Of a DNA stretch of 55,157 bases, positions 25,502 through 49,985 are shown one piece after another. Every line of letters begins with the position of its first letter. Position 1 is the stretch's first letter. Source of the DNA: a virus (lineage: Duplodnaviria; Heunggongvirae; Uroviricota; Caudoviricetes); IMG/VR virus record IMGVR_UViG_2721755660_000006, positions 1 to 55,157 of that record; one strand, 5' to 3'. The notes under the pieces were generated by a model. That model ran no database searches. It was given only the letters and a program-made list of their open reading frames with translations, and was not told the DNA's origin. The position numbers were made by a program, and so were the translations under genes.

Positions 25502-26986
25502 TTAAAATCCGCGCAGGCGCTTAGGTAACATGAGGCCTATTGCCTGTGGCTGGCTTAATTCAGTGATACCCCACACCATTGCGTCGAGGCGGTCCGGGGA
25601 TTTTTTAGCGGTAGCTGGCACGTATTCCATCATTTGATTTTCCAGCGTGTACAGGCTGCCTGTGTGGGCCACCCTTCCTTGTGCATACAGTGCCGATATT
25701 GGCTCGGCTCGGGCGAATTTACCCTTGCTTGCGTGCACCTTAACAATGCGGCCTTTGAATCCGGCATTACGTAGCGTGGCCTCCGCCATTTCGCCGCCCT
25801 GGTTGGTTTCGATAACTATCGCGTCAGCTTCATGGATGTTGTAGGCGTTCATTGATGCTTGCGCCCAGTCGTTAGGAGACATGCGGCCTGAGTAGTCACC
25901 GTCTACAGAATACTGAGCGTGCTTGCCGCCACCATAAGCGGAACATGCCACGATCCCGGTTTCGTCAGACTCATCAGATGATGTTGTTGCCGGGTCGATG
26001 GCTATCACCGTGCGGATCCTGTCCTGCGTTATCTGCATCCGGTGAGCGGCGGTTATCATCGCTTCAGTCCATAATGCGCCTTCTTCGTCGAATTTACGCG
26101 GGCGCTGCATGTACTGCGCCTCGAATGACCTGCGGTGTGCTTTCAGTCCGGCTTCATGGCTGTCATTGTGCTTTTTAGGCCATAGCCAGCCGTCCGGCAG
26201 GTTGTGAGCAATAGGAATAGCGAATTCGTTTTCCGGGTACAGATCCCAATAGTCGATGCTATTGTCGATCTTCACTGGCAGGTTAAGGTGATACCATTTC
26301 TCACCACTGCCACCGCGTAACAGGTAGCCGGACAAATCATCGTAGTGGATACGCTGCATAATGACGATAACAGGCGTCTCCTGTACGGCAAGACGTGAAG
26401 CGAGCGTGTCGTTGTAGTTGTTCTTTACCTTATCCCGCATCACATCAGAGTAAGCGTCAGCGGGCTTTAATGGGTCATCAATAATTAACGCGCCGTTGAA
26501 GCCTGGCTCCATGTAACCAGCACGAAAACCCGTGATCTGGCCGTGTGACGATGCGGCATATATCCCGCCGCCCTGTTCCGTCCACCACATTGATTTGGAG
26601 TTGGCATCATTGCGGATCCTCATAGGCCACATCGCTTGATACTCTGGCGAGCAAATCATATTTCTGACTGTCGATGAATTGAGTAATGCGAGGTTGTCGG
26701 AATAGGAGACATGAAGAAAACGCGTGCGGGGATTTATTGCGAGGGACCGCGCCATCATATTGATAGTTGCGATCATGGTCTTGCCGTACCCTGGGGGGAT
26801 GTTAATGATGAGGCGGGTAATCTCACCATTAATAACGCGTTGCAGTGCATCGCGGATAGCTATGTGATGGCCTGAGACAAACATCTTCGTACCGTTTGCT
26901 TGCTTGTAGAAATAGCGGTTGAAGAACAGGCCATCGTTTTCACATTTTGACTGAATAACCCTTTCTTTGATGGATAACATAATCAC
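25502..26986 (-). CDS. Terminase large subunit
   Basis: 494 aa; Walker A-like PPGYGKT, Walker B-like LIIDDP, C-terminal nuclease-like region. Confidence 0.9.
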   Translation of the reverse strand: MIMLSIKERVIQSKCENDGLFFNRYFYKQANGTKMFVSGHHIAIRDALQRVINGEITRLIINIPPGYGKTMIATINMMARSLAINPRTRFLHVSYSDNLALLNSSTVRNMICSPEYQAMWPMRIRNDANSKSMWWTEQGGGIYAASSHGQITGFRAGYMEPGFNGALIIDDPLKPADAYSDVMRDKVKNNYNDTLASRLAVQETPVIVIMQRIHYDDLSGYLLRGGSGEKWYHLNLPVKIDNSIDYWDLYPENEFAIPIAHNLPDGWLWPKKHNDSHEAGLKAHRRSFEAQYMQRPRKFDEEGALWTEAMITAAHRMQITQDRIRTVIAIDPATTSSDESDETGIVACSAYGGGKHAQYSVDGDYSGRMSPNDWAQASMNAYNIHEADAIVIETNQGGEMAEATLRNAGFKGRIVKVHASKGKFARAEPISALYAQGRVAHTGSLYTLENQMMEYVPATAKKSPDRLDAMVWGITELSQPQAIGLMLPKRLRGF

Positions 26987-27468
26987 ACCTCGTCTTCTAC
27001 TTCCTGGACGATACGGGCGATCTCTTCTTTCGTGACTTCAACCTGGACTGGCGCTTCTTCCTTGTTGCCAACGATCTCCTGTGTGACGCGTTCACCGTAT
27101 TTGCGCGGCTGAAGTTTTGCCAGTAGCCACTTGCGCGTTTCAATCATTAGTTGGTGGCGGCGTAGTTGGTCTTTATCAACGTTCTTAGCATCATCAGCTA
27201 TATCGAGGATCTCATCAGCTAATACCTCGAATCCTATTTCCTTCGCGCGCATGTACATGTCCGAGAATTCCGGCACGTCTCTAAACCATTTCAGGATTGT
27301 GGAACGGGTAGGCATACCAGGCATTTTCGAAATTTTGTTAACGCTCTGACCGTCCGCTACCAGTTCACAGATTTCTAACGCCTTTTCTTCGGTATAACCA
27401 TGCGGACGGCCCACCTTTTTAGCGGCTGGCTTTTTATCGTCAGCCTTTGCCTTTTTAGTGCGGGCCAT
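26983..27468 (-). CDS. Terminase small subunit
   Basis: 161 aa; GRPHGYTEEKALEICELVADGQSVNKISKMPGMPTRSTILKW matches the HTH-containing small terminase signature. Confidence 0.85.
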   Translation of the reverse strand: MARTKKAKADDKKPAAKKVGRPHGYTEEKALEICELVADGQSVNKISKMPGMPTRSTILKWFRDVPEFSDMYMRAKEIGFEVLADEILDIADDAKNVDKDQLRRHQLMIETRKWLLAKLQPRKYGERVTQEIVGNKEEAPVQVEVTKEEIARIVQEVEDEV

Positions 27469-27478
27469 ATTTCACCTC

Positions 27479-27562
27479 TCAATATTTATTGATGATATAT
27501 ACGCAAGCAACAAAACTTGCACAGTATGTTAATACTTCCAACCAGTCGAATAGCTCTTTCAT
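27479..27562 (-). CDS. Mini transmembrane peptide 11 of tandem array (27 aa)
   Basis: MKELFDWLEVLTYCASFVACVYIINKY; its ATG overlaps the stop of peptide 10 (ATGA). Confidence 0.5.
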   Translation of the reverse strand: MKELFDWLEVLTYCASFVACVYIINKY

Positions 27563-27702
27563 TGTTTACCCTTGAATCTCTGTTTTGATTCTCTGTAAAT
27601 AAGCCAGGTAATCATTACGATCACGTATACGCATAACATTAACGCAATAATAAGCACGCCAGAGCAAACTAAGAACATTAACAGATCTATAAACTCAAAC
27701 AT
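27559..27702 (-). CDS. Mini transmembrane peptide 10 of tandem array (47 aa)
   Basis: MFEFIDLLMFLVCSGVLIIALMLCVYVIVMITWLIYRESKQRFKGKQ; AAGAGG Shine-Dalgarno. Confidence 0.55.
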   Translation of the reverse strand: MFEFIDLLMFLVCSGVLIIALMLCVYVIVMITWLIYRESKQRFKGKQ

Positions 27703-27712
27703 GATTGCCTCT

Positions 27713-27784
27713 TTACATAATCGTAAGCGCCCAGGTAATAAGGACGATAGCTAAAACCATGTATATAAAATCTGACTCTCTCAT
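27713..27784 (-). CDS. Mini transmembrane peptide 9 (23 aa)
   Basis: MRESDFIYMVLAIVLITWALTIM; AAGGTGG Shine-Dalgarno. Confidence 0.5.
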   Translation of the reverse strand: MRESDFIYMVLAIVLITWALTIM

Positions 27785-27798
27785 ATTGTCCACCTTGT

Positions 27799-27867
27799 TT
27801 ACGTGAAGAAAACAATAACGACTAACAACGCGCTTATAGCCATGATTAAGAAATCACTGTTAGACAT
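27799..27867 (-). CDS. Mini transmembrane peptide 8 (22 aa)
   Basis: MSNSDFLIMAISALLVVIVFFT; start overlaps the stop of peptide 7; AGGGGTGA Shine-Dalgarno. Confidence 0.5.
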   Translation of the reverse strand: MSNSDFLIMAISALLVVIVFFT

Positions 27868-27934
27868 TGATAATCACCCCTACGATAATTAACGCGGCGA
27901 TACATACGAATAATACGGCTTCGATAACATCCAT
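27860..27934 (-). CDS. Mini transmembrane peptide 7 (24 aa)
   Basis: MDVIEAVLFVCIAALIIVGVIINV; AGGTGAG Shine-Dalgarno. Confidence 0.5.
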   Translation of the reverse strand: MDVIEAVLFVCIAALIIVGVIINV

Positions 27935-27942
27935 TCGCTCAC

Positions 27943-28011
27943 CTATTGAGTCAGTGCGGTCATGGTAAGAACAATCGCAACGATCAGGAAAAGGAAATCA
28001 AGCCATTTCAT
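27943..28011 (-). CDS. Mini transmembrane peptide 6 (22 aa)
   Basis: MKWLDFLFLIVAIVLTMTALTQ; ATG overlaps the stop of peptide 5 (ATGA). Confidence 0.5.
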   Translation of the reverse strand: MKWLDFLFLIVAIVLTMTALTQ

Positions 28012-28088
28012 TTTTTAATCTCCCGGTATACGTCCACGGCAATGACTGTAATAACAGCCACCAGCAATAGCATTTCATATGCGTTCAT
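28008..28088 (-). CDS. Mini transmembrane peptide 5 (26 aa)
   Basis: MNAYEMLLLVAVITVIAVDVYREIKK; AGGTGA Shine-Dalgarno; the track 61-aa ORF 28008..28193 is an upstream in-frame extension. Confidence 0.5.
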   Translation of the reverse strand: MNAYEMLLLVAVITVIAVDVYREIKK

Positions 28089-28096
28089 GCTTTCAC

Positions 28097-28171
28097 CTAT
28101 ACAACATTCTTCCACCAGAAATAGATAATGACAGCGACCAACGACCACCAGATGAGATCGTAAATATTCAT
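28097..28171 (-). CDS. Mini transmembrane peptide 4 (24 aa)
   Basis: MNIYDLIWWSLVAVIIYFWWKNVV; GAAGG Shine-Dalgarno. Confidence 0.5.
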   Translation of the reverse strand: MNIYDLIWWSLVAVIIYFWWKNVV

Positions 28172-28182
28172 GGTGAATACCT

Positions 28183-28269
28183 TCAGCTTTCAATGAATAT
28201 CATGATCGCCAGCCATACAGCGACGCAGGCAGAAAGGATAATGAGCGGGTCAATCATATTGTCACCCAT
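28183..28269 (-). CDS. Mini transmembrane peptide 3 (28 aa, or 24 aa from the internal Met)
   Basis: MGDNMIDPLIILSACVAVWLAIMIFIES; ATG directly follows the stop of peptide 2. Confidence 0.45.
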   Translation of the reverse strand: MGDNMIDPLIILSACVAVWLAIMIFIES

Positions 28270-28365
28270 CTAATATTTGCTCTTTACGGTTATCAGCACG
28301 GCGATAACAAAGCCAACCAGAAATATAGATATGCCTATTAATCCGGCGATGGTGCTGTCGTCCAT
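28270..28365 (-). CDS. Mini transmembrane peptide 2 (31 aa)
   Basis: MDDSTIAGLIGISIFLVGFVIAVLITVKSKY; TGA-TT-ATG junction with peptide 1. Confidence 0.5.
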   Translation of the reverse strand: MDDSTIAGLIGISIFLVGFVIAVLITVKSKY

Positions 28366-28367
28366 AA

Positions 28368-28451
28368 TCAACCTACGGGCCATTTTGGGGAAAACATTAC
28401 AATCGCAGTTCCAGCCGCGCCGATAAATACACCTAGCAGGAAAGTAAACAT
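28368..28451 (-). CDS. Mini transmembrane peptide 1 (27 aa)
   Basis: MFTFLLGVFIGAAGTAIVMFSPKWPVG; GGGGTGA Shine-Dalgarno; ATG two nt after the stop of the HExxH protein gene. Confidence 0.5.
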   Translation of the reverse strand: MFTFLLGVFIGAAGTAIVMFSPKWPVG

Positions 28452-28453
28452 AA

Positions 28454-28996
28454 TCACCCCCGTTTAAAGCTCATAACGCGCGGTACAAGCGCTTCTTTTG
28501 CTTTCGGCTTACGTTTGCCTTTCTTCGCGGTTTTTTCTTCTTCCTTCGGCTGTTCTGCCTGTTCTAATGCCTGCTCAACGACTTCAGCCGCCTGCATTGC
28601 TGCCACCTGTGATTCATTTGATTCTGCCAGGATGGGGAAGAAAGCATCAAAGATACGGCCCACCATGTAAGCGTAAGTCTCATTCGCCGGGTGAGTTTGA
28701 TCAGTTGTCGCTACGACGCCTACATCACTTAAAACGTGAAATGTCGTGTGAGCGCATTCATGCACCAGCGTTCCTAACTCATTGTCGAATACTGCGATCA
28801 CGTAGAAGTTACCGCCTTTCTCACCAGTGCAAGTAAGCGTCAATCCTCCTGCCAGTTCGAAATCAGGTTCTATTGGAATTCCTGCCTTCTCGCAAAATTC
28901 ATAAAACATCTCGCGGGTCGGGCAAAAGAAAACGGTTGTATGCTCAAAGAGCGGGATCTTGAATTGAGGCAACTTAATGCCTTTAGCCTTAGCCAT
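28454..28996 (-). CDS. Hypothetical protein with HExxH motif and lysine-rich C-terminal tail (possible zinc metallopeptidase-like)
   Basis: 180 aa; LVHECAHTTFHV contains HExxH; C-terminal KEEEKTAKKGKRKPKAKE; sits between the spanins and the peptide array. Confidence 0.6.
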   Translation of the reverse strand: MAKAKGIKLPQFKIPLFEHTTVFFCPTREMFYEFCEKAGIPIEPDFELAGGLTLTCTGEKGGNFYVIAVFDNELGTLVHECAHTTFHVLSDVGVVATTDQTHPANETYAYMVGRIFDAFFPILAESNESQVAAMQAAEVVEQALEQAEQPKEEEKTAKKGKRKPKAKEALVPRVMSFKRG

Positions 28997-30912: not shown

Positions 30913-31044
30913 TCAATCATCTTCACCCCCAAGATCGTGATAAATATCGTTAGGGTCTTCACCATGTTCCTCGCAAAAACGCTCAAATAGCGCCCAATTT
31001 TCAGAAAGAAACATGATTAATAAATTTTTATACCACTCTTCCAT
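30913..31044 (-). CDS. Hypothetical small acidic protein (43 aa)
   Basis: ATG directly follows the stop of the upstream gene; MEEWYKNLLIMFLSENWALFERFCEEHGEDPNDIYHDLGGEDD. Confidence 0.35.
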   Translation of the reverse strand: MEEWYKNLLIMFLSENWALFERFCEEHGEDPNDIYHDLGGEDD

Positions 31045-46200: not shown

Positions 46201-46848
46201 TTATGGCAGGTTTACGATCTTCGCATCAACCACCACGCCTATAATTTTTGATTCTGGATTCATAGGGATTGGCGGATACAGCGGATTCAGCGAACGTAAA
46301 AGCCTTTGACCTCCATCAATAATCAACTGTTTAAACGTCGGTATCTGCCCTTCCTCAAGCTGGGCTATAACCAGTTTGCCGTCAATAGCTGGCGCGTGCG
46401 GGTCAACAAGTATCATCGTCCCCGCCGGGATGCTCAACCCCTGCGGCGCGTTCATTGATTCACCTTTGGCAACCAGCCAGTAACTATCATCTGAACAAAT
46501 AACGCTAGTCGTAACGTGTGGTAATGCTGATCGCCTTGTGTCATCCATATTGTTTACTGTGTCCTTCCAGTCAATAACCGGGTAACTACCTAAATCACGC
46601 GGCGGTGCGGCCTGAAGTGTATTAGAAACAGAATCATCAATGACCATACCATCATGTGTAACAGTGAACTGACGACGCCCAAGCGCCCGCATAATCCGCG
46701 CAATATCTTCAAGATTTGGCTCGCGGCGACCGTTAAGCCAGTGTGACAGGCCGCCTTTAGTTATCCCCATGAGATCTGCGAGTGAATCCTGACTCATGCC
46801 CTGCGCCCGCATGAGCTGCTTTGCTAAGTCATACCATTTTGTTTTCAT
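46201..46848 (-). CDS. CI-like repressor (HTH plus S24 LexA-type peptidase domain)
   Basis: 215 aa; N-terminal HTH (MSQDSLADLMGITKGGLSHWLNG) and C-terminal S24-like autocleavage region with GESM and DGKLVIAQL. Confidence 0.85.
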   Translation of the reverse strand: MKTKWYDLAKQLMRAQGMSQDSLADLMGITKGGLSHWLNGRREPNLEDIARIMRALGRRQFTVTHDGMVIDDSVSNTLQAAPPRDLGSYPVIDWKDTVNNMDDTRRSALPHVTTSVICSDDSYWLVAKGESMNAPQGLSIPAGTMILVDPHAPAIDGKLVIAQLEEGQIPTFKQLIIDGGQRLLRSLNPLYPPIPMNPESKIIGVVVDAKIVNLP

Positions 46849-47412: not shown

Positions 47413-48471
47413 ATGAAGTGGTTTAAGCATGATAGCGATGCGAACCGCGATGAAAAACTTCAAAACGTTTTATTAGATTATGGCCTGGAAGGGTACGGGC
47501 TTTATTGGTATTGCCTAGAACTAATAACTTATGACGTAGATCAGCACAATCTAACTTTTGACCTACGACATGACGCAAGAATAATTGCGCGAAACGTCGG
47601 ATCTACTGAAAAACGTATAGAAGAAATGATGAAATACTTCATCGAAATTGGTTTGTTTGAATGTTCTCAAGGCCACATAACTTGTTTAAAGTTATTGAAA
47701 AGGCTGGACCAATCAATGACTTCTAAAAGCGCTTACAGGGCCGCCATAAACACAGCGAAGGAGCAATTAAAATTAGAAAAGTTAATCAATCCAACACAAA
47801 AAGGTCATGATAGGGTCATGACCGGGTCAGGAAAGGGTCATGAATTAGAATTAGAATTAGAAGTAGAAAAAGAAAGAGAAAAAGATATATACACTTCGTG
47901 TATTGTCGAAAATGAACAAAAAATGGTCAATCAGGATGGCGTAAACGAAGCGGCATTGCGTTGCCTTGCCTTCTACAACGACAAGGCAGGATGCAAATGT
48001 CGTGATGCTAAGCCATTCGTAGAACTACTGACAGAAACAAAAACACGTAAAGCGTATACGGAGGATGAGATCACATTAGTGATTGAGTGGGCTTTAACCC
48101 AATGGCGTAGCCGTGGTGGAGTACCTAAGCCTATCAACATTTGCCGGGTAACTAAGTTTGATGGGTATTTGGCTGATGCTGAACAATGGCGCAAGCTATC
48201 AGCTACTGTAAACGCTGCCGACGTGGTGGAAGCATTTAACAGCACGTTTGACGGCCTGTTACCACCTGCCGAACTGGATCGGGATCTTGAACGCAAGATC
48301 TATGCGTTCACTGACTACCTGAAAGACAAAAGCATTAACGGCTTTGTCGCCTACTTCGAAACGTTCAAAAACACGGCTTCAGATTTTTACTTCGGCAATG
48401 GCTTCACTGCGACACTTGATTTTCTGCTTAAACCAAAAACGCTACGTGATACGCGCGCTGGCGTTCTTTGA
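47413..48471 (+). CDS. Replication initiation protein / replisome organiser (lambda O-like role)
   Basis: 352 aa; N-terminal MKWFKHDSDANRDEKLQNV...GLEGYGLYWYCLELI typical of phage replisome-organiser N-domains; internal iteron block. Confidence 0.7.
   Translation: MKWFKHDSDANRDEKLQNVLLDYGLEGYGLYWYCLELITYDVDQHNLTFDLRHDARIIARNVGSTEKRIEEMMKYFIEIGLFECSQGHITCLKLLKRLDQSMTSKSAYRAAINTAKEQLKLEKLINPTQKGHDRVMTGSGKGHELELELEVEKEREKDIYTSCIVENEQKMVNQDGVNEAALRCLAFYNDKAGCKCRDAKPFVELLTETKTRKAYTEDEITLVIEWALTQWRSRGGVPKPINICRVTKFDGYLADAEQWRKLSATVNAADVVEAFNSTFDGLLPPAELDRDLERKIYAFTDYLKDKSINGFVAYFETFKNTASDFYFGNGFTATLDFLLKPKTLRDTRAGVL
47795..47895. promoter_or_regulatory. Candidate replication origin: four GGGTCATGA-type iterons plus AT-rich repeat tract inside the organiser gene
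   Basis: AAGGTCATGATAGGGTCATGACCGGGTCAGGAAAGGGTCATGA followed by ATTAGAATTAGAATTAGAAGTAGAAAAAGAAAGAGAAAAAG. Confidence 0.55.
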
Positions 48472-48603
48472 CCAATCACGATCCGCAAAAATCCAAAATT
48501 ACCCACAAAACAACCTCATCAGCGAGCTAAATCGCATGGGGGCTACACTTGCTTACCTTTTTGCGATTAGCTTGTTATGGAGCGTTTCAGAGAGGATTTA
48601 GCT

Positions 48604-48705
48604 ATGAACGGTAAACGCATGTTCGCCCTGGCTTTCGCGATCGCGATGGCTATCGCTGTTAACGTCGCCTTGTTCGGCGGCTTATATCTACTAGTTAATC
48701 CATAA
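48604..48705 (+). CDS. Mini hydrophobic peptide (33 aa)
   Basis: MNGKRMFALAFAIAMAIAVNVALFGGLYLLVNP; GAGAGGA Shine-Dalgarno. Confidence 0.4.
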   Translation: MNGKRMFALAFAIAMAIAVNVALFGGLYLLVNP

Positions 48706-48866
48706 CTACCCTTCTACCTTAAAAATCGAAAATTAGCCACCTGATTGCGCTTCTGGCGCAAAAAAGACACTGCACCCTTACAAGTGGGTTACGCGGTGGA
48801 TTTTTGCGTTGTAGCGCGTTTTACGGAAAATAAATATACATTCTGTAAACCGGAGGAATTAACGTT

Positions 48867-49985
48867 ATGTCACAAAGAAAGATCAGCGATGAACAGTTAA
48901 TCGCTGAACATAATAACGGTCTGACGTATAAACAGATCGCAGAAAAATATGGCATGGCAAAACGCAACGTCGAACGCCTGGGCGCACGGTTGGCGAAACG
49001 CGGTTTAATATCCACGCGCCGCGCACCGGGTTTTGGCGTCAATGCTGAGTCATTGCTCGTCGATAAGGATGGCAATGTGATTATGCGCTGGATTAAAACA
49101 GCCCGTGACCGCGATGAAATGGAAATGCTAATGCAATCTGCTTGTGACGCCTTCACGGAAGAAATACCCCGCGCGGAGGCCGTGCCAGTGCCGGAAATTG
49201 ATTTTCAAAAAAGCCTGGCCCTTTATCCGGTATTCGATCTGCATATCGGGGCGCTTGCTCATAAAGCTGAATGCGGTGAGAGCTACGACACCGGGATCGC
49301 TGAACGCGTGCTAAATGACTTCTTCGACTACGCGGTAGGCGCTGCGCCAATGTCTGAAAAGGCTGTTTTGCTTCTCGGCGGTGATGTGCTTCACACTGAC
49401 GGCCTGTTACCAGTGACGCCATCAAGTAATCACGTTTTAGATTGTGATTCACGCTACGCAAAACTGGTTTATGTGGCGATCCGGTCGGTCCGGCGTGCGG
49501 TCGGGAAGATGTTACTAAATCATAAGGATGTCGAGATCCAGGTATTATCCGGTAATCACGACCAATCAGGTATGATCTGGCTACGTGCTGCGCTGGCGGC
49601 TTTTTACGAAGATGAACCGCGTGTGACGGTTGATGTGTCACCTGCTATCGTCCATCACACACAGTACGGCAAAACATTTCTTGCTTACCACCACGGGCAC
49701 ACTATCAAAAAGCCAGAAAATTTACTTTCTGCCTGCGTTTCTGACTGGCGGGAGGATTTCGGCAAGTCGTCGTCTGTTTACGCTCATTGTGGACACTGGC
49801 ATCACCAACGGCTGATTGAATCATCGTTGGGCGTTGTTGAGTACCACGGCACGTTAGCTGGCAAAGACGCTTATTCAACGAATGGCGGCTGGCGGTCGCG
49901 GCGGCTGGCTGCGGTAATAATTTACAGTCCTGATCATGGGGAAATCGGGCGCTTTGTTTATTACCCTGAATATTCCATTTTGTAA
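48867..49985 (+). CDS. Calcineurin-like metallophosphoesterase with N-terminal HTH-like domain (Mre11/SbcD-like motifs)
   Basis: 372 aa; motifs DLHIG, GGDVLHTDG, GNHD, HHGH, GHWHH; N-terminus LTYKQIAEKYGMAKRNVERL. Confidence 0.65.
   Translation: MSQRKISDEQLIAEHNNGLTYKQIAEKYGMAKRNVERLGARLAKRGLISTRRAPGFGVNAESLLVDKDGNVIMRWIKTARDRDEMEMLMQSACDAFTEEIPRAEAVPVPEIDFQKSLALYPVFDLHIGALAHKAECGESYDTGIAERVLNDFFDYAVGAAPMSEKAVLLLGGDVLHTDGLLPVTPSSNHVLDCDSRYAKLVYVAIRSVRRAVGKMLLNHKDVEIQVLSGNHDQSGMIWLRAALAAFYEDEPRVTVDVSPAIVHHTQYGKTFLAYHHGHTIKKPENLLSACVSDWREDFGKSSSVYAHCGHWHHQRLIESSLGVVEYHGTLAGKDAYSTNGGWRSRRLAAVIIYSPDHGEIGRFVYYPEYSIL

Follow-up and report, generated by a model that had tools for sequence, protein, structure and literature searches.

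Comparative evidence for a 33-codon gene predicted to encode a single-pass membrane peptide in the early region of mEp021-like coliphages

Several groups of very small proteins are the closest described counterparts of the peptide analyzed herein. The toxins of type I toxin-antitoxin systems (Hok/Gef, Ldr, TisB, Ibs, ShoB, DinQ, and ZorO) consist, like this peptide, of one hydrophobic helix with basic residues near one end; they are 19–50 residues long, are often borne on prophages or plasmids, and, as with the peptide, are often missed by annotation. MgtR, MgrB, AcrZ, KdpF, PmrR, and CydX are likewise single-pass proteins of about 30–50 residues, which pack against a larger membrane protein, and MgtR uses an Ala-coil face. 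Lambda Kil and CIII and T4 Imm resemble the peptide as short products of early operons, encoded beside replication/recombination genes and serving as dispensable accessory factors; of these, T4 Imm is larger, and the two lambda proteins are soluble or amphipathic. In TnaC-type leader peptides, a short ORF ending in Pro-stop is followed, as at this locus, by a C-rich spacer and a terminator. Holins and pinholins are also small hydrophobic phage membrane proteins; holins typically have at least 60 residues, one to three helices, and a charged C-terminal tail, and are encoded in the late lysis cassette.

The ORF studied here lies in a tailed-phage sequence of 55,157 nucleotides (IMG/VR record IMGVR_UViG_2721755660_000006), the whole of which is referred to below as the window. 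Its product is probably a translated, early-expressed, single-pass inner-membrane peptide, which would act through helix packing in the membrane. The gap region that holds the ORF was 100% identical to that of Escherichia phage MagusPhagus and 83–87% identical to those of mEp010, mEp013, mEp044, mEp515, mEp554, and mEp021, which constitute the “mEpimmI” group of Nus-dependent, non-lambdoid temperate coliphages (PMC11893012). As summarized in Table 1, the gap measured 395 bp from the stop of an O-like replication initiator gene to the start of an exonuclease gene, the latter being followed by a DnaB-type helicase gene. These values agreed with the initial annotation, which had placed the ORF in a gap of about 400 bp between an “organiser” and a “metallophosphoesterase” gene.

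Table 1. Positions of the features of the peptide locus in the window.
Feature	Position	Strand	Remarks
S24/LexA-type repressor	46201-46848		divergently transcribed
O-like replication initiator, 352 aa	stop at 48471	+	Pfam Lin1244_N; PHROG replication initiation O-like
C-rich, G-poor untranslated spacer	48472..48524	+	after initiator stop; GC skew -0.52 at 48460-48519
Direct repeat R1 (AAAAATCCAAAATTACCCAC)	48487..48506	.	putative left cassette boundary, 20 nt
Leader inverted repeat, probable RNA hairpin	48516..48580	+	core AGCGAGCUAA / UUAGCUUGUU; between initiator stop and Shine-Dalgarno sequence
Shine-Dalgarno sequence GAGAGGA	48590..48596	+	7 nt 5' of ATG 48604
33-codon ORF + TAA	48604..48705	+	encodes MNGKRMFALAFAIAMAIAVNVALFGGLYLLVNP; predicted single transmembrane helix
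Second C-rich, G-poor spacer	48706-48750	+	after peptide stop; GC skew -0.58 at 48680-48739
Direct repeat R2 (AAAAATCGAAAATTAGCCAC)	48721..48740	.	putative right cassette boundary, 20 nt, 234 nt from R1
Intrinsic-terminator-like element	48755..48811	+	A-tract, hairpin 48768-48798 (CACUGCACCC...GGGU..GCGGUG), U-tract 48801-48805
PHROG “DNA repair exonuclease”, 372 aa	start 48867	+	3' of ORF gap

The ORF is already listed as a “hypothetical protein” in MagusPhagus and in five PHANOTATE-annotated mEp genomes. It is missing from the mEp021 record, and at the match RefSeq (PGAP) shows no annotation in any of the 32 E. coli prophages containing the greater part of the gap. In the protein collection, the intact 33-aa product was found on more than 700 contigs, and a profile search returned 42 protein clusters (the three largest comprising 456, 152, and 103 contigs), all of which represented the same 33-aa peptide or leader-extended calls thereof; the source names were all E. 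coli, with the designation “hypothetical” or “putative membrane protein”. Some phage records, as well as nr, contain a call for the peptide, with no family, name, or function attached. Very small membrane proteins are systematically overlooked, and this one has been left unannotated by RefSeq despite its presence on more than 700 contigs. The peptide sequence gave no full-text match in a literature search, and neither the locus tags of the ORF nor the peptide sequence was found in the supplements of the mEpimmI paper. Ipe, the hemolysis-inducing protein of mEp021, was ruled out as the identity of the peptide, being the 77-aa product of ORF-4 (PMC6379469).

The borders of the ORF were read from the window sequence as ATG at 48604–48606, 33 sense codons, and TAA at 48703–48705, so that the initial description of a 33-codon ORF with a GAGAGGA ribosome-binding site was borne out exactly. 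In the program-made ORF list, MNGKRMFALAFAIAMAIAVNVALFGGLYLLVNP was embedded in a 42-aa ORF beginning at an upstream ATG (48577). The longer version was dropped, since this codon is ATA or AGA in most relatives, leaving 48604 as the conserved start. The Shine-Dalgarno sequence was retained as AGAGAGGAT in nearly all relatives. As a chance background, the six frames of the window contained 247 ATG-initiated ORFs of 25–60 aa, 7 of which were equally hydrophobic. A hydrophobic ORF of 33 codons is by itself unremarkable, and it is the comparative data that raise this one above chance.

To collect copies of the locus, IMG/VR was scanned twice, with one pattern within the ORF and a second in the upstream non-coding leader, the latter placing no bias on the ORF, and copies from the protein search were added. 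The resulting 81 copies represented 31 distinct DNA versions and 21 peptides, all of exactly 33 codons with zero indels, while the leader and trailer flanks differed by 1-nt indels among relatives. The alleles deviated from the consensus by 51 synonymous and 32 non-synonymous changes, against an expected synonymous fraction of 26% (binomial p = 2e-11). The other two sense frames displayed no synonymous excess, and the smaller excess seen in one of the antisense frames (36 vs 47) matches what third positions shared with the ORF frame would produce. Variable sites were distributed over the three codon positions as 17/14/30. The dN/dS values were 0.05 between the window and L052, a copy in which a second gene adjoins the ORF, and 0.15 between the window and the consensus; against L050, a copy from the second phage context described below, pS reached 0.76, at which synonymous sites are saturated, with a pN of 0.16. 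The Shine-Dalgarno sequence and the start codon were conserved except in one lineage (L009, L014, and L021; IMG/VR sample 3300045988), in which the Shine-Dalgarno sequence is intact, ATT replaces ATG, and Thr8 and Gln9 occur in the hydrophobic stretch; this copy may be an ATT-initiated variant or may be decaying.

The constant length of 33 codons, the frame-specific synonymous excess, and the occurrence in a second phage context thus indicated, at the level of sequence comparison, that the ORF is a real coding gene under protein-level purifying selection, as was also suggested by the low dN/dS, the absence of indels, and the conserved Shine-Dalgarno sequence. Alternatively, the frame could go untranslated and simply accompany a conserved element of the DNA or RNA, for example part of an origin, protein-binding sites, or an RNA structure. 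The mean column identity of the non-coding flanks was 87%, about equal to that of the ORF, so part of the ORF conservation is regional; in addition, the ORF contains a short TCGCGA-type repeat and a weak hairpin (48664–48681), and PGAP makes no call here. Nucleic-acid constraint, however, would not be expected to leave 30 of the 32 third positions variable in one frame with a synonymous excess, nor to preserve the length and the peptide at 70% DNA identity in wholly different flanks, and the likely origin lies elsewhere, inside the initiator gene (47799–47889). We therefore consider this explanation exceedingly improbable. The initial proposal that the replication module contains a genuine mini-gene, which encodes a hydrophobic peptide and has a ribosome-binding site of its own, was, by contrast, well supported by the conserved Shine-Dalgarno sequence, the substitution pattern, and the predicted helix.

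The second context was provided by homologues 70–79% identical to the peptide, found in an unrelated type of phage from three independent metagenome samples. One of the proteins retrieved (P0022) is a 70% identical homologue, and another (P0039) is a close relative of P0022; HMMER, run exhaustively over 1.84 billion cluster representatives, returned 3 hits, all from the peptide's own family. In the second phage type, the gene is embedded in long series of small genes on one strand, as is usual for early regions. The contigs were distantly similar to virulent myoviruses of about 140–155 kb, with about 70% DNA identity to rV5-like phages over a few hundred bases, and a nucleotidase-like gene showed 33–35% protein identity to those of large virulent myoviruses. 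Here the Shine-Dalgarno sequence differs (AAGAGG or AAGAGGAG), the flanks are unrelated, and a strong terminator of its own follows the ORF at about 30 nt (L050, 5103–5165; L053, 10103–10160). The two virulent-phage copies differ from one another mostly at synonymous sites. As the ORF is kept amid a different Shine-Dalgarno sequence, different flanks, and a different terminator, the inherited or exchanged unit appears to be the reading frame itself. This portability is the strongest argument that the peptide would be the functional product, with a role not tied to replication, and its occurrence in different phage types suggests an early role of broad use at the host membrane. When 185,579 species genomes were scanned with a degenerate back-translated pattern to look past the phages of E. 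coli, only 3 chance hits in unrelated reading frames were obtained.

AlphaFold2, run with a 22-sequence alignment, predicted one helix spanning residues 3–31 with a pLDDT of 94.6, and the best 19-residue Kyte-Doolittle stretch scored 2.44–2.74 (2.44 for the peptide encoded here). Residues M1, K4, F11, I17, V19, N20, L23, F24, G25, L27, and P33 were invariant, and F7, A12, V21, G26, L29, L30, V31, and N32 were nearly so. With the basic residues K4/R5 at the N-terminus and Asn-Pro at the C-terminus, the prediction is that of a bilayer-spanning hydrophobic helix with flanking positive charge, of which the N-terminus with K4/R5 would probably be cytoplasmic. A8, A12, and A16, followed by N20 and F24, are spaced at i+4 and thus occupy one helical face, beside G25-G26. 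Small-xxx-small stripes and a mid-bilayer Asn favor tight helix–helix association in membrane proteins, and the conserved A8/A12/A16/N20/F24 face would be typical of such packing. The A8/A12/A16 stripe is comparable to the Ala-coil face of MgtR; the peptide nevertheless differs from MgtR, MgrB, AcrZ, KdpF, PmrR, and CydX in showing no homology to them, in being phage-encoded, and in its conserved mid-membrane Asn. Unlike holins, it is the product of an early gene, has 33 residues, and ends in Asn-Pro, and it is unrelated in sequence to Kil, CIII, and T4 Imm, PHROGs having no family for it. Indeed, none of the Pfam, NCBIfam, PHROGs, or PADLOC models matched the peptide at E ≤ 10. With its length of 99 nt and its clearly conserved residues K4, N20, G25, and P33, the gene offers a clean small genetic target.

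The initial annotation had likened the peptide to type I toxins, in which case it would be a membrane-depolarizing toxin, its mRNA being inactivated by structure and by a cis- or trans-acting antisense RNA, possibly through a hok-like fold-back. The resemblance in size and composition stood: the peptide falls below 60 aa (33 aa), has a hydropathy of 2.44 and a helix predicted by AlphaFold2, and its single hydrophobic helix with N-terminal basic residues fits such toxins. The leader is also conserved and structured, RNAalifold paired 48516–48524 with 48791–48798, and a perfect 12-nt inverted repeat (I6) occupies 48484–48495 and 48797–48808. The hok-like fold-back was nonetheless rejected, as neither I6 nor the long-range RNAalifold helix showed compensatory change and, in relatives, only CGCAAAAA/UUUUUGCG is left of the repeat. 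Regarding an antisense RNA, a consensus promoter scan of 48300–49000 on both strands found no promoter-like site. With a matrix calibrated on the repressor-proximal early promoters, which score 9–10, the plus strand near the ORF reached a maximum of 6, and the best minus-strand site, TTAATT-18-TATATT at 48862–48833, scored 8.0. The latter sequence is limited to window-type phages, and a transcript from it would hit the probably bidirectional terminator before reaching the ORF. Across 36 relatives, no conserved promoter-like site was detected on the antisense strand or ahead of the ORF by these simple scans, which covered sigma-70-type sites close to the consensus, and an Rfam search of the locus matched no RNA family; the expected antisense RNA accordingly did not emerge.

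Moreover, partition-function folding of a 340-nt segment from all relatives gave a paired probability of 0.63 for the Shine-Dalgarno sequence, compared with 0.54 overall, with no consistent partner. The Shine-Dalgarno sequence lies outside the leader hairpin, and no 5' structure blocking ribosome binding was recognized. Simple consensus scans revealed neither a promoter for the peptide mRNA itself nor one for an antisense RNA, and the toxin models of Pfam and NCBIfam (Hok, Ldr, TisB, Ibs, ShoB, Fst, etc.) gave no match at E ≤ 10. Of the four defining features of type I systems that were checked, three were thus not found. Together with the lack of sequence relation to known toxins, the position in line within an early operon, and the homologue in a virulent phage, these observations made the type I toxin interpretation quite improbable.

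With the O-like initiator before it and the conserved terminator after it, the gene is in line with its neighbors. Given this position and the absence of an own promoter in the sigma-70-type scans, it would be an ordinary cistron that most likely shares a transcript with the other early-operon genes. Antitermination in the mEpimmI group involves Gp17, an N-like protein, and nut sites, one of which, nutL, adjoins the repressor gene (PMC11893012). In-operon terminators such as that downstream of the ORF would suit this Gp17/nut antitermination design. A nut-like site at the initiator stop was considered and rejected: the last initiator codons (48459–48472) read CGCTCTTTGAC in most relatives, a boxA-like sequence, with no convincing boxB stem after it; the window has CGTTCTTTGAC at this site, and the rrn boxA is GCTCTTTAAC.

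The terminator-like element folded to −25.6 kcal/mol (z −3.9), a stability that none of 200 shuffles reached. Of 36 relatives, 35 carried its bulged 10-bp hairpin, which came in 18 versions ranging from −8.3 to −16.3 kcal/mol and showed compensatory exchange of C-G for A-U pairs in the inner stem; a simple terminator scan missed the element because of a 3-nt bulge. With a GC-rich hairpin directly before a U-tract and conservation through compensatory changes, the element has the features of a predicted intrinsic terminator, which is probably bidirectional, the A and U tracts being symmetric. On the minus strand, another hairpin, of 12 bp and with a T-rich run after it, occupies 48883–48907, just inside the exonuclease gene; in mEp010, mEp013, and mEp044, the corresponding position bears the annotation ARNold terminator T1. 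Upstream of the ORF, the leader inverted repeat folded to −28.6 kcal/mol (z −2.2). Its 10-bp core was almost invariant; pair 64:100 flips from U-A to A-U in 9 sequences, and another pair is mostly C-G, mismatched in seven sequences, and A-U in L052 through a double change (GAGAUAAAC/GUUUAUCUC). Overall, 80% of cells paired, versus 34–47% in slid controls. The repeat is a probable RNA hairpin, with modest covariation support since the structure was derived from the window sequence. PHANOTATE calls at 48446–48601 and 48745–48900 (“hypothetical protein” in MagusPhagus), which lie over the leader hairpin and the terminator, carry 1-nt indels in relatives and are most likely not genes. Both C-rich spacers may be regarded as rut-like in composition, which would hint at a link to Rho; such a composition is as expected of Rho-utilization sites in an antitermination-controlled operon.

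This arrangement raised the possibility of a cis-acting leader or arrest peptide, in which slow termination at Pro-stop would hold the ribosome on the C-rich spacer and modulate Rho loading or the terminator in a TnaC-like manner, thereby tuning how strongly the exonuclease and helicase are expressed. The C-terminal Pro-stop hardly varies, even in the distant homologues and in an LAHP variant, the C-rich, G-poor spacer begins directly after the stop, with the conserved terminator next, and in one virulent-phage copy (L050) an upstream hairpin overlaps the 5' arm of the terminator by 4 nt. Constraint, however, extends over the whole helix rather than merely the last 10–15 residues; in contrast to TnaC, the whole transmembrane-like sequence is conserved, and the family persists with unrelated downstream sequence. 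The terminator stem begins 63 nt past the stop codon, beyond the direct reach of a terminating ribosome, and the candidate anti-terminator hairpin of L050 is absent from the other virulent-phage copy (L053), so that no alternative terminator/anti-terminator pair within ribosome reach was found and an attenuator in the virulent-phage copy was rejected. Furthermore, a chain of 33 residues would still be within the exit tunnel at termination, and its hydrophobicity would thus escape the insertion machinery. On these grounds a leader-peptide role appeared very improbable.

The locus also displayed signs of modular exchange. The R1/R2 motif had only two matches in the whole window, with 0.37 expected. 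In one relative (L014, 6872–7208), the R-to-R unit is tandemly duplicated with a period of 235, the junction consisting of R2 followed by the post-R1 sequence. Homology begins at R2 in two E. coli prophages, and it runs from R1 onward in two phages with a different upstream gene (L029 and L036). In E. coli KKa019 (L048, 3159–3530), a 77-aa MarR-like HTH ORF occupies the peptide slot behind a related leader, and in L052 (690–1200) the peptide gene and a 77-aa HTH gene stand in tandem, joined at the leader motif GCTACACTTGC. The gene following the terminator differs between phages. From these rearrangements, the peptide gene appears to be a near-core yet exchangeable module, a mobile cassette between two 20-nt direct repeats. 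The ATT-bearing lineage, together with the replacement of the peptide gene by the HTH gene in 2 of 34 prophages, suggested that the peptide gene is dispensable. The locus is an example of an essential operon in which short direct repeats serve as sites where mini-genes are exchanged, duplicated, or substituted.

For the single-pass inner-membrane peptide favored here, the following course can be proposed. Its mRNA would be part of a repressor-controlled early operon comprising the HTH protein, the O-like initiator, the peptide, the terminator, the exonuclease, and the DnaB helicase, which in mEp021 relatives would be subject to antitermination by Gp17. The peptide would thus be made at infection or induction, alongside the replication proteins, and the hairpin and U-tract located 50–100 nt 3' of the gene would limit read-through unless RNA polymerase is antitermination-modified. 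Once inserted in the membrane, the peptide may act as a modulator, either by binding an inner-membrane protein of the host or the phage or by self-association, as its sequence motifs alone would suggest; we do not regard it as an addiction-type toxin countered by an RNA antitoxin. We have a weak preference for a modulator, exclusion, or anti-defense role over that of a depolarizing toxin, because the co-expressed replication functions need an energized cell and a virulent phage keeps the gene. A more far-reaching interpretation, which we put forward tentatively and regard as possible though doubtful, is that the peptide represents a new family of early membrane effectors in temperate mEp021-like phages and large virulent myoviruses, moving as a repeat-bounded mini-cassette and either self-associating through the Ala stripe and Asn20 or clamping a host inner-membrane protein. 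If such effectors exist, they may exclude superinfecting DNA, disable a membrane-bound defense system or protease, or partly depolarize the cell. The finding of the peptide alone leaves the established picture unchanged.

With respect to replication, an origin within the ORF gap was rejected. Four 11-bp iterons (GGGTCATGA, period 11) and AT-rich GAATTA/AGAAAA repeats were instead located within the initiator gene at 47799–47889, where the phage origin probably resides, an arrangement like that of the lambda ori inside O. Inspected by eye as DnaA boxes or IHF sites, R1 and R2 gave only 7–8/9 or out-of-register matches, and these assignments were likewise dropped.

Other small hydrophobic ORFs were noted elsewhere in the window. 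On the minus strand, 27479–28457 contains packed short hydrophobic ORFs of 27, 47, 28, 37, and 29 aa, possible mini membrane proteins, upstream of a 161-aa ORF (26983–27468) with a basic N-terminus. In addition, isolated ATG-initiated ORFs of 38–44 aa with a hydrophobic 19-residue stretch (Kyte-Doolittle of at least 2.5) begin on the minus strand at 30965, 43558, and 14469.
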